This document shows, piece by piece, positions 17,242 to 48,224 of a DNA stretch of 64,000 nt; the stretch's first letter is position 1, and the number at the start of each line of letters is the position of its first letter. The notes under the pieces are model-generated. The model saw only the letters and a list, made by a program, of their open reading frames with translations. It made no database searches and had not been told where the DNA came from. Made by a program: the position numbers and the translations under genes. The stretch is taken from NCBI GenBank assembly GCA_965369865.1, contig CBDURU010000002.1, positions 3,838 through 67,837 of the forward strand, written 5' to 3'. This stretch comes from an uncultured bacterium. Lineage in GTDB: Bacteria; JAJVIF01; JAPKYR01.

Positions 17242-17314
17242 TGCGCCTGCCGGGAGTCGAACCCGGAGCTAATTGTGAGCTAGACAATTGCTTTATCCGT
17301 TAAGCTACAGGCGC
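17242..17314 (-). tRNA. tRNA, anticodon loop CUAGCUC (anticodon AGC by position). Atypical
   Basis: Reverse complement folds as a cloverleaf: acceptor GCGCCUG/CAGGCGC, D-stem GCUU/AAGC, anticodon stem AUUGU/ACAAU, T-arm CCGGG-UUCGACU-CCCGG, 5-nt variable loop, A73. Confidence 0.75.
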
Positions 17315-17790
17315 ATGTTTATCTAAAACGCCTCTCGCCTATCAGCTTAGGGCGTTTGTATTCATTGATGATGGCTAGAATCGAACTCCAGCCACCACCA
17401 ATTAAGTTAACGACTCATATGAGTCACGTTGAAAGTCCGCTGGAGAGGCTCACGATAAGTGAACCCCTCCGTTTGACTGTCAATGTTCATTTAAATGCCC
17501 CTCATGATTTGATCGTCCGGGGGGTATTTCTTTCTGCATTCTAAGATACACGACACAAAAGGAAAAATCCACTTTTTTGTTTCAACAAAATTCAACACTT
17601 GATAGGCGGTTCAATTCGATCCGGTTCTGGGGGGATATCAATACCCGAATGAGTAATGAATTATTTGGCAATACTTATGGGTTTGTCAAGTGAATAGTTC
17701 CGATAAAATATTGATTCATATCAGGCACTCCCGTTACACTGGTCTCGGACCGCTCGCTGACGATCGCGGCTCCGATACGGTATTCCCTGG

Positions 17791-20834: not shown

Positions 20835-20880
20835 AAAATAACGCTGGAGGGTCCAGCGAAAAAATAGAATTACACAAAAG

Positions 20881-20910
20881 CACCGGCAGAAAGCCGGTGT
20901 TATTTTATTG
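20881..20910 (+). terminator. intrinsic terminator
   Basis: CACCGGCAGAAAGCCGGTG followed by TTATTTTATTG. Confidence 0.7.
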
Positions 20911-20934
20911 TCGGGTGGATTGTTGCCTGGCAGG

Positions 20935-21158
20935 CCACTCACTAACGTTCGTGGTACTGATGCGGTTCGTTCGGACTAAGGCCACTCCCTGACGGTCGCG
21001 GTACTGTGAATATTCACTCCCTGACGGTCGCGGCTCTGATACGGTTCGTGGTACTGTGAATGTCCACTCCCTGACGGTCGCGGCTCTGATACGGTTCGTG
21101 GTACTGTGAATGTCCACTTCCTGACGGTCGCGGCTCTGATGCGGTTCGTTCGGACTAA
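20935..21158. repeat. tandem array, about 5 copies of a 50-57-bp unit (repeat family 3)
   Basis: Unit cactccctgacggtcgcggctctgatacggttcgtggtactgtgaatgtc, with end units cactcactaacgttcgtggtactgatgcggttcgttcggactaa. Abuts the acs stop codon. Confidence 0.8.
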
Positions 21159-23116
21159 TCTTGATCCTTGCCCGATGCCAGATCCGACAGGTTCTTAAGC
21201 ACTCCATGATCCTCAAGAGTACTCGTATCACCGCTTGCGACTTCACCGTTCGCTATGGACTTCAACAGGCGCCGCATGATCTTCCCGGACCTGGTTTTGG
21301 GAAGGGCTTCGGTGAAGATAAGTTTTTTCGGACGCGCAATCGCGCCGATTTCCTTATCAACGTGGGCTTTCAGTTCCTTGATAATTTCTTCGCCCGGCTC
21401 GATACCCATTTTAAGAGTGACAAATGCGCAGACAGCCTCACCGGTCAGGTCATCCTTCATTCCGACAACAGCCGCCTCGGCAACCTTGGGATGCGCGACA
21501 ATCGCGCTCTCGATTTCCATGGTGCCCAGGCGGTGACCCGCTACGTTCAGGACATCGTCCAAACGGCCCATGATCCAGAAATAACCGTCCTCATCAGTAC
21601 GCGCTGAGTCGCCGGCATAATATTTATGGGGAATCTGCGACCAGTATGCCTGCTTGTATCGCTCATCGTCGTTGTAAAGGGTCTGGAGCATCGCAGGCCA
21701 GGGTTGCTTGATAACCAGCCGTCCACCACTTCCGAGCGGGACCACCTCTCCGGACTCGTTGACGATTTCGGGATTGACACCGGGAAGCGGACGTGTGCAT
21801 GAGCCGGGTTTGGTCGGGGTCGCACCGGGTAGAGGGCTGATCATGATGCTCCCGGTTTCGGTCTGCCACCATGTATCGACTATCGGGCAATTCTCATTAC
21901 CGATATTCTTGTGATACCAGATCCAGGCTTCAGGGTTGATCGGCTCACCGACAGTCCCAAGCAGACGGAGTGACGAGAGATCGAATTTCTGGGGATGCTG
22001 CTCGCCCCATCTCATGAACGCGCGAATCGCTGTCGGTGCCGTGTAGAACGTATTAATCCTGTATTTTTCAACCATTTCCCAGAATCGTCCCTCATGAGGG
22101 AAATTCGGCGCGCCTTCGAACATGACCGATGTGGCACCATTGGCGAGTGGCCCATAAACGATATATGAATGCCCGGTTACCCAGCCGATATCCGCTGTGC
22201 ACCAGAATGTATCCTCTTCCTTGATATCGAAAACCAGCTTGGTGGTGTGGTAGGTTCCGACCATGTATCCACCGGTTGAATGCTGGACACCCTTGGGTTT
22301 TCCAGTTGAACCGGAAGTATAGAGGATAAACAGCGGATGGGTGGATTCGACCGGCGTGGCCTCGCATACTCCGCTCTGGCCGTCTATCAGGTCATGCCAC
22401 CAGATATCCTTATCATCGATCCAGTCAACCGGTCCACCGACGCGTTTAACGACTATATTCTTCTCAATTGTCGGGCAGTTTTTGATTGCTTCATCGGTGT
22501 TAGCCTTGAGCGGAACATGCTTGCCTCGACGCCAGCCCTGGTCGGCGCAGATGACAATCTTAGCTCCGACATCGTTGATCCTGTCCTTCAGGGCTTCAGC
22601 GGAAAACCCGCCGAAAACTATCGAATGCGGTGCCCCTATTCTGGCGCAGCCAAGCATAGCGATAGCAAGCTCGGGAATCATCGGCATGTAAAGGCAGACA
22701 CGGTCGCCTTTCTCGACACCCAGGCTTTTCAAGCCGTTGGCGAACCTGCACACCTCATGGTGAAGCTGCTGATAAGTGAAAGTCCTCTGATCCCCCGGCT
22801 CGCCTTCCCAGATGATGGCAGCCTTGTTTTTCCTCGCGGTTTCGAGATGCCTGTCGAGGCAGTTATAGCTGATGTTTGTAACTCCGCCTTTGAACCATTC
22901 GGCAAATGGCTCGTTCCATACAAGAACCTCCTTAGGCTCTTCAAACCAGAAGAGTTCGCTGGCGATTTCAGACCAGAACTCTTCAGGATTTTCAATGCTT
23001 CGTTTCCAAAGTGCCTCGTACTCCTCCATACTCTTGACATGAGCATTACTGGAGAATTCCTTCGATGGATAAAAAACTCTTGTTTCCTTAAGTTTGGATT
23101 CAATGTCTACAGTCAT
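21155..23116 (-). CDS. acs: acetyl-CoA synthetase (AMP-forming)
   Basis: 653 aa, [14 protein letters not shown]-binding motif, overall Acs pattern. Confidence 0.9.
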
Positions 23117-25870: not shown

Positions 25871-26056
25871 TGCCCCCCTGTAATCCCCCCGCAAGCGGGG
25901 GGATGGTTTTTTTACCTCCCCCCAACTTGGAGGGGATGGTGTTTTTACCTCCCCCCAACTTGGAGGGGATGGTTTTTTTACCTCCCCCCAACTTGGGGGG
26001 GATGGTTTTTTTACCTCCCCCCCACTTGGGGGGGATTGAGGGGGGGGTCGGTTTTT
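25871..26056. repeat. tandem array of 5 G/C hairpins each followed by a T-tract (terminator-like units on the + strand)
   Basis: ccccccgcaagcgggggg-atggttttttt, then 4x acctccccccaacttggaggggatggt(g)ttttt. Confidence 0.8.
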
Positions 26057-28625: not shown

Positions 28626-28867
28626 GATGGTCCTCTGCTACATTCTGCATTAAATCTCCGTATATTTAAAGACCACAGAGATTATCGGAAAGCTCAATAA
28701 TCTTGGAATCATTCGAACACCGGGGACAGGCACCCAGATTTGCCGGGTAGTTTGGAGTGGGAGTGGACGTATGTATTAGCGGCAAATCTGTGAGCCAGTC
28801 CCCTGAACGGAAATTAGATTCAAGGGGATTAGTGGACATGGTAGACCGCTCACTGGCGTTCGCGACT

Positions 28868-28975
28868 CTGATATACGGTTCTGATATACGGTTCTGATAT
28901 ACAGTTCTGATATACGGTTCTGATATACGGTTCTGATATACGGTTCTGATATACGGTTCTGATATGTGGTACTGG
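28868..28975. repeat. tandem 15-bp repeat, about 7 copies
   Basis: (ggttctgatatacgg)n, with one variant cagttctgatatacgg. Confidence 0.85.
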
Positions 28976-29049
28976 TATAAGACTGGTGGCCCCTCATAAC
29001 CAGCCCCGTGCTGGTTAGGAGGGTCCTGCAATCCATCTACATGCTCCAA

Positions 29050-29129
29050 ACAGTACCGCGAACGTTAGTGAGTGGTCTGCCAAATCCACTTATCTACCAT
29101 CCAGACCACTCACTAACGTTCGCGGTACT
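29050..29129. repeat. 29-bp perfect inverted repeat
   Basis: cagtaccgcgaacgttagtgagtggtctg ... cagaccactcactaacgttcgcggtactg, with a 22-bp spacer. Core shared with the 20935 array. Confidence 0.85.
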
Positions 29130-29161
29130 GATACAGACACGCACTCACATCGGGACTTCAC

Positions 29162-30397
29162 TCACATCGGGTCTTCGGGTAAAACCATATCGACCGGAAT
29201 AATAATAAGCTCCTCCGGTTCGCCCTGCAAAGCATAGATATTTACCCCGTCCAGCGAAATCGCGACGTCCCTGAAATATGAATCCGTGAGGTTTTCAATT
29301 CTCGATGTAAAAACCGCCCCGTCACCGGCCAGATCGATAATGGCAAGGTCGGATGTGAAAACCCAGCGCATCGATTCCGGGAAATTTCCTCGGATCATAT
29401 TCCGGTATGTATTCACAAACGACCATGTCGCGGGCGGTCCCCAGTCGGAAAGAATCGCGAATGCAAACGATCCTGTGGGCGATGTTGCGAAGTCACCCAC
29501 GCCGGCGGTTCCTATAAAAATCGGTTCGCTCTCTCCCGGACCGGTGATAAATGAAAACGCAGGCTCCATGAGATTTCCTTCGCCCTGCTTACTGCCGGAG
29601 CACGCCACCAGGATTCCCGCCTCGGATTCCGCGAGCCTGCTCGGGTTAATTCCCACCCAGGATTTATCGAGTAAATCGAGAGTATCGGCATCGTATGCCC
29701 AGACCCACGCACCGTACGGCGGTCCCATAGTGCCGTCCGCCTGTTCACTCCACTGAAGCTCAAGGTCGGTTACATAAAGAGTGCCATCTCTTTCAGCGAT
29801 CGCCCACGGGATTTTTCCGCACGATGCCTGAGATTCGATTTCAAGAATTATTTCACCCGTCTCGTCGAAATTCATACTGAGCTTATAAATTATGCCCTCG
29901 TATGCGTACTGCATCCCGCTGGCGATATAGATAGTCCCGGAATATTTCGAATAAACCGCGTTGCACGAACCATCGAGTTCGAATTCATTTAACACCTGGC
30001 CATTCGATTGATCGATGACTAGTAAAACGCCCCGATCGATTATTTGATCGTCCAACGGTTCGCCGACCAGGTACAGCCCGGTTCCGAACTGGCAGAAGGC
30101 AAGGGCTGTCGGACGGATCGTGAGGGGAACATCGATAAGCACGGTTCCGTCTTCAGGATCGAGCGCCACAAGGTTCCCGGACTGGTGGAAGAAAGTCCAG
30201 ATATTGCCATTGAGAGGTTCAATGACTAGGGGTCCCGCGCCTGTACCTGGAAGTTCCCAGGATATAATATCCCCAGCGCTGGATTCTTCCCCAGGCACAT
30301 CGGCATCCTGGGCTGCCGCATAACCGGAATTAACACTTAGAACCAGGAATATGACAGCGGTAATGAATAGCCCCTGAATAGATCTCATGACAGACAC
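29162..30397 (-). CDS. secreted beta-propeller (YVTN-repeat-like) protein
   Basis: Signal peptide MRSIQGLFITAVIFLVLSVNSGYAAAQD. Repeated DG-T-YV motifs including GTLYVTDLE. Confidence 0.5.
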   Translation of the reverse strand: MSVMRSIQGLFITAVIFLVLSVNSGYAAAQDADVPGEESSAGDIISWELPGTGAGPLVIEPLNGNIWTFFHQSGNLVALDPEDGTVLIDVPLTIRPTALAFCQFGTGLYLVGEPLDDQIIDRGVLLVIDQSNGQVLNEFELDGSCNAVYSKYSGTIYIASGMQYAYEGIIYKLSMNFDETGEIILEIESQASCGKIPWAIAERDGTLYVTDLELQWSEQADGTMGPPYGAWVWAYDADTLDLLDKSWVGINPSRLAESEAGILVACSGSKQGEGNLMEPAFSFITGPGESEPIFIGTAGVGDFATSPTGSFAFAILSDWGPPATWSFVNTYRNMIRGNFPESMRWVFTSDLAIIDLAGDGAVFTSRIENLTDSYFRDVAISLDGVNIYALQGEPEELIIIPVDMVLPEDPM

Positions 30398-48050: not shown

Positions 48051-48224
48051 AGACGCTTTGAATTCATGGGGACGCTTTTCCATGCTTCCAGCATTGAAAG
48101 TGTCCCCATGAATTCTTAGTAACACGGGACACCTTCAACTCTGGAAGAGTGGAAAGGCGTCCCTGAATCTAAGATTGGGGCGTCACTGAATATAAGATTG
48201 GGGCGTCACTGAATCTAAGATTGG
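48051..48224 (+). mobile_element. MITE-like nested-palindrome element, copy 2 (extended by two 23-bp tandem tail units)
   Basis: Same sequence as 10756..10883 with a few substitutions. 3' tail ggcgtccctgaatctaagattgg is triplicated. Confidence 0.8.

Follow-up and report, generated by a model that had tools for sequence, protein, structure and literature searches.

Knowledge of the class 3 HuH-Y1 proteins and of the hairpins associated with them comes, as far as we are aware, from one survey, and neither has been the subject of experiments. In that survey, these proteins (TnpA_Y1) appear as rare, transposase-like enzymes of Planctomycetes, Acidobacteria, and Proteobacteria, 24 of which are listed; structures resembling repetitive extragenic palindromic (REP) sequences flank their genes, and about 600 copies of the hairpin are reported from Solibacter usitatus (Quentin, Siguier, Chandler, and Fichant, 2018, BMC Genomics 19:475; PMC6006769). 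The hairpins in its Table S1 include CAGAGCCGCGACCGTCAGGGAGCGATCG and CAGAGCCGCGACCGTTAGGGAGCG... from S. usitatus, CCGAGCCGCGACCGTAAGGGAGCGGA from Legionella pneumophila, and ACGAGCCGGAAGCGTCAGCGACGGGC from Planctomyces limnophilus, and most are drawn with the fold ((((..((....))..)))) or a close variant and carry a CnGA foot (PMC6006769). No Rfam or other searchable model of these hairpins exists, so that annotation pipelines and first-pass readers rediscover them as unexplained repeats. This report concerns a family of short non-coding repeats in a 64,000-nucleotide (nt) stretch of DNA from an uncultured bacterium (assembly GCA_965369865.1, contig CBDURU010000002.1), called the window throughout, where the family is concentrated at two main loci, one abutting the stop codon of the acetyl-CoA synthetase gene acs (20935-21158, locus 1) and the other lying between two minus-strand genes (locus 2).

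On the evidence of sequence and predicted fold, the window repeats are identified as copies of the class 3 HuH-Y1-associated REP-like extragenic hairpin. The leading 22 nt of one unit of the acs array, R2 (CAGAGCCGCGACCGTCAGGGAGTGG), are identical (22/22) to the S. usitatus hairpin CAGAGCCGCGACCGTCAGGGAGCGATCG of that table, and the window units also match its hairpins from Solibacter, Legionella (CCGAGCCGCGACCGTAAGGGAGCGGA), and Planctomyces almost base for base. Class 3 hairpins and window units have in common the CnGA foot, the fold, the GTNA loop, and probably a high copy number, and the class 3 host range (Planctomycetes, Acidobacteria, and Proteobacteria, including Legionella) is also the range over which units are spread among the matches listed in our genome scan. 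The window differs from the published class 3 examples in the CAGT foot of four of its nine units and in a variant upper stem with an A-T pair, and a head-to-tail cluster with truncated half-units, together with a 13-nt microarray derived from the foot, is not described for class 3 in the survey text that was read (PMC6006769). The kind of hairpin is therefore already known, having been described in 2018, and the window supplies another example of a selfish or domesticated repeat. What is new is a working covariance model for class 3 hairpins, together with their consensus and a structure supported by covariation, evidence that the foot strand is the functional strand, and a distribution in metagenome-assembled genomes (MAGs) of Acidobacteriota and Planctomycetota far wider than the 24 proteins listed in the survey would suggest.

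Hairpin Anatomy, Strand, and Covariation

The 24-nt repeat core is the reverse complement of 5'-AT CnGA G CCRC GA NC GTNA GN GA GYGG-3'. Read on the latter strand, the unit is a 20-nt hairpin composed of a 4-bp lower stem, a 2x2 internal loop in which tandem G.A/A.G mismatches are possible, a 2-bp upper stem, and a GTNA tetraloop, with an unpaired CnGA foot on its 5' side; the "n" of this foot is the variable position 23 of the core. The fold, ((((..((....))..)))) with the consensus GCCGCGACCGTNAGGGAGCGG, was derived here before it was compared with the published one, and it is the minimum free energy (MFE) fold for four of the seven single window units that were folded.

Covariation was evaluated on 216 copies from the window and from the matches listed in the genome scan, which reduce to 103 distinct sequences. 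Only the N, R, and Y columns were free or half-free in the pattern by which the copies had been collected, so only these columns could show covariation. Paired cells reach 90.9% against 83.1% in column shuffles, none of 500 shuffles attaining the observed value. The covariation score of 0.281 compares with 0.142 after shuffling (again 0/500) and does not exceed 0.074 once partners are shifted by 1-3 columns. Among the distinct copies, pair 12:27 is G-C in 46, A-T in 30, and G.T in 21, and pair 16:23 is C-G in 73, G-C in 14, and A-T in seven. The switch at 16:23 is visible within the window itself, where units of the CAGAGCC type have C-G and those of the CAGTACC...GTTAGTG type have A-T. On the opposite strand, the 21 G.T wobbles at 12:27 would read as A.C mismatches; since they pair on the foot strand only, the foot strand is the strand under selection, and stem covariation together with one-strand wobbles points to a hairpin of single-stranded nucleic acid and not to duplex recognition. 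Other columns are strongly conserved, although these figures are partly built in by the collecting pattern: G14.A25 is found in 98 and A15.G24 in 79 of the 103 copies, the loop is GTNA in 89 (GTCA in 49 vs. GTTA in 25), and the foot is CnGA in 82 and CnGT in 16, or 98 together.

Nine Units at Three Loci in the Window

The window was searched with Tandem Repeats Finder, by repeat finding, with a pattern search accompanied by shuffles, with a looser scan, and finally with the covariance model. The 24-nt pattern has three matches and its degenerate form CACTCMCTRRCGKTCGYGRYWCTG has eight, with none in 100 shuffled sequences, which bears out the proposal of a first-pass annotation, made from the letters of the sequence, that the two main loci share a core. 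The covariance model finds exactly nine copies in the 64 kb, at 35-44 bits, and everything else scores 17 bits or less. These nine units are a singleton after queG, five direct copies at acs (plus two truncated ones), and three copies at locus 2. Their foot strand is the minus strand in eight of nine cases, and the foot is CAGA or CGGA in five and CAGT in four. The first-pass inventory of two loci was correct as far as it went; it missed a third core at locus 2 (28847-28870) and a third locus (17751-17774).

Locus 1 (20935-21158) contains five direct cores on the plus strand, starting at 20936, 20983, 21015, 21065, and 21115. The core-to-core spacings are 47, 32, 50, and 50 nt, with 8-26 nt between cores, and Tandem Repeats Finder reports a period of 50 nt with 3.2 copies at 20992-21149. 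About five units adjoining the acs stop had been proposed earlier, and they are present, the array end at 21158 overlapping the stop codon at 21155-21157; the period of 57 given for them is absent, the true one being 50. All five units have their foot strand on the minus strand. The first after the stop codon, R1 (CATCAGAGCCGCGACCGTCAGGAAGTGGACA; 21112-21142, core 21115-21138 on the plus strand), scores 41.1 bits with the covariance model (E = 1.9e-7), has the MFE fold ((((..((....))..)))), and recurs in contig L119, an independent assembly discussed below. It is followed by R2 (21062-21092; 43.9 bits), R3 (21012-21042; 41.0 bits), and R4 (CAGTACCGCGACCGTCAGGGAGTGG; 20980-21010; 37.9 bits), which has a CAGT foot and the canonical MFE fold. 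The last, R5 (CAGTACCACGAACGTTAGTGAGTGG; 20933-20963; 36.0 bits), is a variant that also has the canonical MFE fold and in which the upper stem pair is A-T in place of C-G, in keeping with the covariation of 16:23. Reading of the sequence reveals two identical copies of a truncated unit, h (CAGTACCACGAACCGTAT), on the minus strand at 21039-21056 and 21089-21106; h consists of the foot and 5' half-stem of an R5-type unit and ends at the loop. Repeat finding further identifies a 20-nt segment ATGCGGTTCGTTCGGACTAA (21139-21158, plus strand) that holds the acs stop codon (CTA at 21155-21157), and a second copy of it at 20960-20979 (plus strand), so placed that the two copies flank R1-R4. In the acs sense, the locus thus reads TAG-TCCGAACGAACCGCAT / R1 / ACATTCA / h / R2 / ACATTCA / h / R3, and continues after R3 with ATATTCA / R4 / CCT-TAG-TCCGAACGAACCGCAT / R5 / ...terminator.

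At locus 2, a diverged unit (CAGAGTCGCGAACGCCAGTGAGCGG; 28844-28874, core 28847-28870, foot strand minus; 35.6 bits) lies at the edge of a 13-nt tandem array, TCTGATATACGGT repeated 7.6 times (28867-28965, plus strand), which was recovered by Tandem Repeats Finder, repeat finding, and pattern search. The first-pass annotation had seen this array but gave its unit as 15 nt. On the minus strand, the array reads ACCGTATATCAGA, i.e., (CAGA-ACCGTATAT)n, a CAGA foot with an ACCGTAT motif and no hairpin; the same ACCGTAT motif also occurs 5' of units in the window genome. The other two units form the left arm (29047-29077; 35.4 bits), the sole window unit with its foot strand on the plus strand, and the right arm (29104-29134, foot strand minus; 37.5 bits) of a perfect 29-nt inverted repeat (29051-29079 / 29102-29130) with a spacer of 22 nt, which confirms the inverted repeat originally reported. 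This is a doublet like those of REP doublets forming hairpins (REPINs) and bacterial interspersed mosaic elements (BIMEs), in which the two foot-strand units are oriented with their 3' ends toward one another; folded as single-stranded DNA, it has a predicted energy of -36.4 kcal/mol (z = -13.5).

The remaining unit, CGGAGCCGCGATCGTCAGCGAGCGG (17748-17778, core 17751-17774, foot strand minus; 40.7 bits), stands alone 17 nt past the queG stop codon. A tRNA gene on the minus strand (17242-17314; Rfam, 62.3 bits) lies about 440 nt from it, and none of the annotated genes on either side of the tRNA gene and this unit is an integrase or mobile-element gene.

Distribution in Other Genomes

When 185,579 species-representative genomes were scanned for the degenerate core, a scan in which about one chance hit is expected by our own estimate, the matches listed comprised at least 116 loci in about 66 assemblies, and the counts in this section refer to those matches. 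The hosts, labeled as in the records, comprise about 33 Acidobacteriota assemblies, mostly Bryobacterales/Solibacter, and about 22 Planctomycetota, including Kuenenia, Phycisphaerae, Gemmataceae, and Pirellulales; the others are one MAG each of Myxococcales, "Deltaproteobacteria," Gammaproteobacteria, and Legionellaceae, and a few singletons elsewhere. Several hosts carry multiple copies, with at least 14 loci in DATMNI and at least 20 in CAYTWV, and the window itself has nine copies at three loci in 64 kb. Records of Legionella adelaidensis in a plasmid collection also carry units, a metagenome scan for the GGTACTG subtype added 31 further loci, and viral contigs gave zero unit matches. Subtypes of the core tail follow lineage: GGCTCTG or GGTTCTG in Bryobacterales, GGCACTG in a Myxococcales MAG, and GGTACTG in several Planctomycetota. 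The window holds both GGTACTG and GGCTCTG, which, taken with its G+C content, suggests that it may derive from a planctomycete.

Units are deployed as singletons, inverted doublets, and direct clusters, with one or two units at most of the 8-kb loci. Among the inverted doublets listed, 37 have core 3' ends facing each other and 33 have core 5' ends facing, with spacers of 2 to >100 nt; the former prevail in Acidobacteriota and the latter, to which the perfect inverted repeat of the window belongs, in Planctomycetota. A direct cluster outside the window, at L144, has four units at 27-nt spacing. In an all-against-all BLAST of 1,394 open reading frames (ORFs) near units, there was no recurrent neighbor, the best family occurring at five of the 116 listed loci, and Pfam assigned the ORFs bracketed by units at L004, L038, L079, L087, and L094 to ordinary housekeeping genes only. 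The units are extragenic and mostly located at gene 3' ends. Of 135 unit clusters, 50 fell "inside" an ORF, in a crude gene call that overcalls ORFs in GC-rich DNA, and 23 lay at locus edges; the 62 classifiable intergenic sites divide into 30 convergent, 26 co-directional, and six divergent. Where the flanking genes are co-directional, the foot strand has the sense orientation relative to the upstream gene as often as the antisense one (23 cases each). Several of the listed units lie 20-80 nt from true contig ends, as is expected of high-copy repeats that break short-read assemblies. The proposal that the family is dispersed, structured, and non-coding is upheld, and the prospect that the core might occur only at the two main loci is contradicted by the third site in the window and by the 116 or more loci elsewhere.

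Larger repeats built around the unit were seen in three MAGs. In the Bryobacteraceae MAG JBKQPR (L033, L054, L077, L100, L110, L114), the hairpin doublet is at the center of a palindrome of about 130 nt, CTAGGTCTC...GAGACCTAG, and in the Myxococcales MAG CAYTWV (L016, L041, L078, L086, L093), about 60 nt are conserved on each side of the hairpin. These longer repeats suggest composite derivatives of the unit that resemble miniature inverted-repeat transposable elements (MITEs). In the Gammaproteobacteria MAG CAVRCT (L029, L072, L088), doublets form regular tandem arrays with periods of about 96-148 nt and conserved spacers, a satellite-like amplification of the unit.

Possible Origin of the Arrays and Spread of the Units

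By analogy with the action of TnpA_REP on REPs and with TnpA_IS200/IS605, the hairpin, folded on single-stranded DNA, would be bound by a class 3 Y1 enzyme, the gene for which would lie in another part of the genome. The 5' foot would position cleavage and rejoining by this enzyme, and, if the analogy holds, such reactions would spread units to new intergenic sites. The local arrays may have grown by tandem duplication, to which the 50-nt units and the two copies of the 20-nt segment with the acs stop codon around R1-R4 point. Like the REPs of E. coli, hairpins in a 3' untranslated region (UTR) may in addition influence the 3' ends of mRNA. The foot (CAGA...) marks the exact start of the 50-nt unit and CGTAT its end, and a [GA][TC]AT motif (CGTAT, CGCAT, TGTAT, or ATAT) is found 5' of seven of the nine window units.

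Duplication of a segment with a stop codon is not confined to acs. At locus 2, a 17-nt segment is present twice (29142-29176) and includes the stop codon of the upstream gene (ORF 29162..30397), so that at both main loci the stop-codon segment of the adjacent gene is duplicated beside a unit (17 nt twice at one, 20 nt twice at the other).

Truncated units directly 5' of a full unit also occur in at least six unrelated genomes, at L011, L046, L048, L056, L079, and L091, with three 19-nt repeats at L079 and 20-nt repeats at L091, and half-sites are four times commoner near full units (0.47 per kb) than elsewhere (0.11 per kb). Judged from its sequence, this architecture could reflect hairpin-induced slippage or enzyme-mediated head-to-tail events. 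It is conceivable, if doubtful, that the acs array is the footprint of repeated, site-specific head-to-tail insertion by a Y1 enzyme, or of abortive strand transfer beside an existing hairpin, and not of ordinary slippage. Such a footprint would be the first mechanistic clue for class 3 HuH enzymes and would help to explain the near-frozen hairpin sequence across phyla.

Weighing of the Evidence

That the repeats are class 3 REP-like hairpins, mobilized by a Y1 enzyme and locally multiplied by tandem duplication, is the explanation that we regard as probable for the observations as a whole. Several points weigh against it. A six-frame scan for the HuH...Y motif and Pfam searches of 30 ORFs identified no class 3 Y1 gene in the window, and neither did a motif scan of 150 fetched loci with Pfam searches of the unit-bracketed ORFs at five of them, negatives that rest on motif and Pfam, no search with a class 3 protein query having been made. 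The six hairpin sites inspected in Legionella adelaidensis are all ordinary intergenic sites with no transposase nearby. The link to the enzyme comes from the survey (PMC6006769) and not from an observation of our own, and for class 3 the case for cleavage and mobility is one of analogy. Most columns were fixed in the pattern used to collect the copies, and four of the nine window copies have CAGT where CnGA is the rule. By nearest-neighbor parameters the single hairpin is weak, at -2 to -3 kcal/mol in six of the seven units folded, the queG copy reaching -7.0 kcal/mol, and the z values of these seven units lie between -1.5 and +0.9. Tandem sheared G.A pairs, like GNNA loops, form stably in both DNA and RNA, and they would stabilize the hairpin beyond this estimate. 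GC skew is flat in the window and gives no replication direction against which a lagging-strand prediction could be set. Literature searches with the unit sequence strings returned nothing relevant, the family having been traced through REP/RAYT keywords (RAYT, REP-associated tyrosine transposase).

The earlier suggestions for the repeats were protein-binding arrays, small RNA (sRNA) genes, and remnants of the ends of a mobile element. The units might act mainly as RNA, be it as a terminator in the acs 3' UTR, as a barrier to 3' exonucleases, or as an sRNA that serves as a protein sponge by means of its repeated CAGGGAG motifs, and a role of this kind is invited by the five units of the acs array, which are all acs-sense and, being placed after the stop codon and before a terminator-like hairpin, are probably transcribed. 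The preference for gene 3' ends (30 convergent vs. six divergent sites among the matches listed) would suit it too, as would the established ability of E. coli REPs to stabilize upstream mRNA, summarized in the survey (PMC6006769). However, the even split of 23 sense and 23 antisense units between co-directional genes in that set shows no strand preference; at the gathering threshold, Rfam recognizes only the tRNA at 17242-17314 in the whole window, and at E <= 10 it gives for both main loci sub-threshold generic hairpin matches to microRNA models, far below gathering scores; and as RNA, the 291-nt array folds with no energy in excess of expectation (z = +0.48). Near-identity across phyla is, moreover, unexpected for a generic terminator or stabilizer. 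We therefore consider a primary role as RNA unlikely, and sRNA genes in particular are not supported; an RNA effect is compatible with the data as a secondary one, which would leave the origin and spread of the family unexplained. A role as double-stranded DNA sites bound by a regulator or nucleoid protein, in the manner of operator- or iteron-like arrays, is less likely again, and we attach a very small probability to it. Direct arrays with a regular spacing of about 50 nt and the imperfect dyad symmetry of the unit are what such sites would have, but compensatory changes and strand-specific G.T wobbles indicate intramolecular pairing and so disfavor protein-binding arrays of the double-stranded kind. 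In addition, divergent, promoter-bearing regions are avoided (six of the 62 classifiable sites among the listed matches), and the unrelated neighbors in several phyla fit no regulon.

Closer to the preferred class 3 explanation is the suggestion of remnants of mobile-element ends. It was right in that the hairpins are of the HuH-Y1 (IS200/IS605-like) type; the units are not, however, remnants of the ends of one element, but a free-standing, multi-copy extragenic family. In its conventional form, with the units as terminal inverted repeats of an insertion sequence (IS) or MITE or as decayed remnants of these, and the 29-nt inverted repeat as a minimal MITE, it appears quite improbable. The perfect inverted doublet with its 22-nt spacer, the units at contig ends in MAGs, and the unit inside a longer conserved repeat in two MAGs are all as expected of such elements. 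Yet no transposase or other recurrent protein family occurs near the units at the 116 listed loci, both inverted arrangements exist with spacers of 2 to >100 nt and hence no fixed element body, the doublets inspected by eye show no target-site duplications, and each arm is a covarying hairpin, unlike ordinary terminal inverted repeats. Integrons occur in Planctomycetes, and their attC sites are likewise imperfect palindromes recombined as single-stranded hairpins; the CTAAC/GTTAG-like motifs in the unit also recall them. The chance that the units are attC sites, or an attC cluster without integrase, is nonetheless minimal. The hairpin measures 20 nt vs. 55-140 nt for attC, GTTAG/GTCAG lies in the loop region and not in outer R boxes (R'' RYYYAAC, R' GTTRRRY), and GTC is commoner than GTT. 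Cassette-like spacing is missing, with mostly one or two units per 8-kb locus and acs cores only 8-26 nt apart, and there is no integrase among the 30 window ORFs scanned with Pfam. Equally slight is the chance that the tandem arrays are assembly artefacts, a concern raised at the outset and not borne out. A short-read contig (L119; Logan, SRR21487742), the one other contig examined across the array, does break inside it, as a real repeat that exceeds the assembler k-mer in length would lead one to expect. This independent contig carries acs and the PAS-domain gene as well as an exact copy of the first unit; the units differ from one another by substitutions (GGAAG vs. GGGAG; GTGAATATTC vs. 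GTGGACATTC); and the unit family is found in dozens of independent assemblies among the listed matches, long-read chromosomes included.

Gene Context and Other Repeats

The window has a G+C content of 47.5%. The acs gene (21155-23116, minus strand) encodes a protein of 653 amino acids with the Pfam families ACAS_N, AMP-binding, and AMP-binding_C, and promoter/terminator prediction places at 20879-20901 a terminator-like hairpin that is bidirectional, both strands having a T-run. Located between the acs stop codon and this predicted terminator, the array is probably 3' UTR, and the consequence for the locus is modest, a hairpin-rich insertion of about 220 nt in that region. The array shares its convergent intergenic space with a gene for a 4Fe-4S protein. 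Pfam also identified queG (epoxyqueuosine reductase), the neighbor of the singleton. Locus 2 fills a 536-nt gap between two minus-strand genes of unknown function, the downstream one of which, a membrane-protein gene, encodes hydrophobic segments at the N- and C-terminus of its product. The other neighbors in the window with Pfam assignments are DJ-1/PfpI, Rrf2, PAS, DUF4139, purC, smpB, UDG, L25, and pth, which are housekeeping genes together with queG. As already proposed, the repeats have no evident protein-coding capacity, the ORFs that overlap them (20905..21246 and 28666..29049) having no Pfam family.

Three further repeats were noted in the window. Between two DUF4139 paralogues, both on the minus strand, a 33-nt unit GGGGATGGTTTTTTTACCTCCCCCCAACTTGGA is repeated 4.2 times (25899-26036); each unit consists of a C-run/G-run hairpin followed by a T-run on the plus strand, so that the array amounts to four terminator-like modules antisense to the flanking genes. 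At 28722-28803 there is an inverted repeat of 24 nt with a 34-nt spacer and 88% complementarity; it is unrelated to the REP-like unit and is the sole copy in the window. Tandem Repeats Finder also reports a 23-nt tandem repeat, GGCGTCACTGAATCTAAGATTGG, in three copies at 48156-48224.

Comparison with Known Systems

The points of interest in this family, modest overall, are its near-identity across phyla, its strand-specific covariation, and the recurrent truncated-unit architecture. Two candidate identities, a multi-site transposon end like those of Tn7 or Mu and a CsrA sponge, were considered early and dropped. The CGTC-tagged palindromic repeats, in which one end of the stem-loop bears the tag as an unpaired tetranucleotide (Di Nocera, De Gregorio, and Rocco, 2013; PMC3733652), are likewise REP-like, occur in several phyla with no adjacent transposase gene, and share the CGTC string with the units. 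In the units, however, this string extends over the upper stem and the loop, and it is CnGA that forms the unpaired tag; this difference in position excludes a CGTC-tagged repeat in the sense of that study. The subterminal hairpins of IS200/IS605 elements (e.g., IS608 LE/RE) have in common with the units a length of about 20 nt, recognition in single-stranded form, an irregular stem, and a guide tetranucleotide 5' of the hairpin foot. Unlike them, the units are free-standing and multi-copy and have no element body, there being no tnpA or tnpB between the hairpins.

The canonical REP, BIME, and REPIN sequences that depend on RAYT (TnpA_REP, a class 2 Y1 protein) resemble the units in being short imperfect palindromes with a conserved 5' tetranucleotide. 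Both are extragenic and biased toward gene 3' ends, both occur as singletons, as inverted doublets in two arrangements, and in clusters, and both are presumed to be mobilized in trans by a single-copy HuH-Y1 protein. The foot is CnGA in the units vs. GT[AG]G in canonical REPs, and with CnGA or CnGT in 98 of the 103 distinct copies, a canonical GTAG-tagged REP was rejected. The stem of the unit, at 4+2 bp, is far shorter and contains conserved tandem G.A mismatches, and the enzyme associated with the unit falls outside the class 2 of RAYT, in a class of its own that has a Y----Q motif as in IS200. Canonical REPs are species- or genus-specific, whereas the sequence of the unit is nearly constant across phyla; such constancy of a 24-nt REP-like sequence is uncommon among REPs and would deserve the attention of those who work on HuH enzymes.

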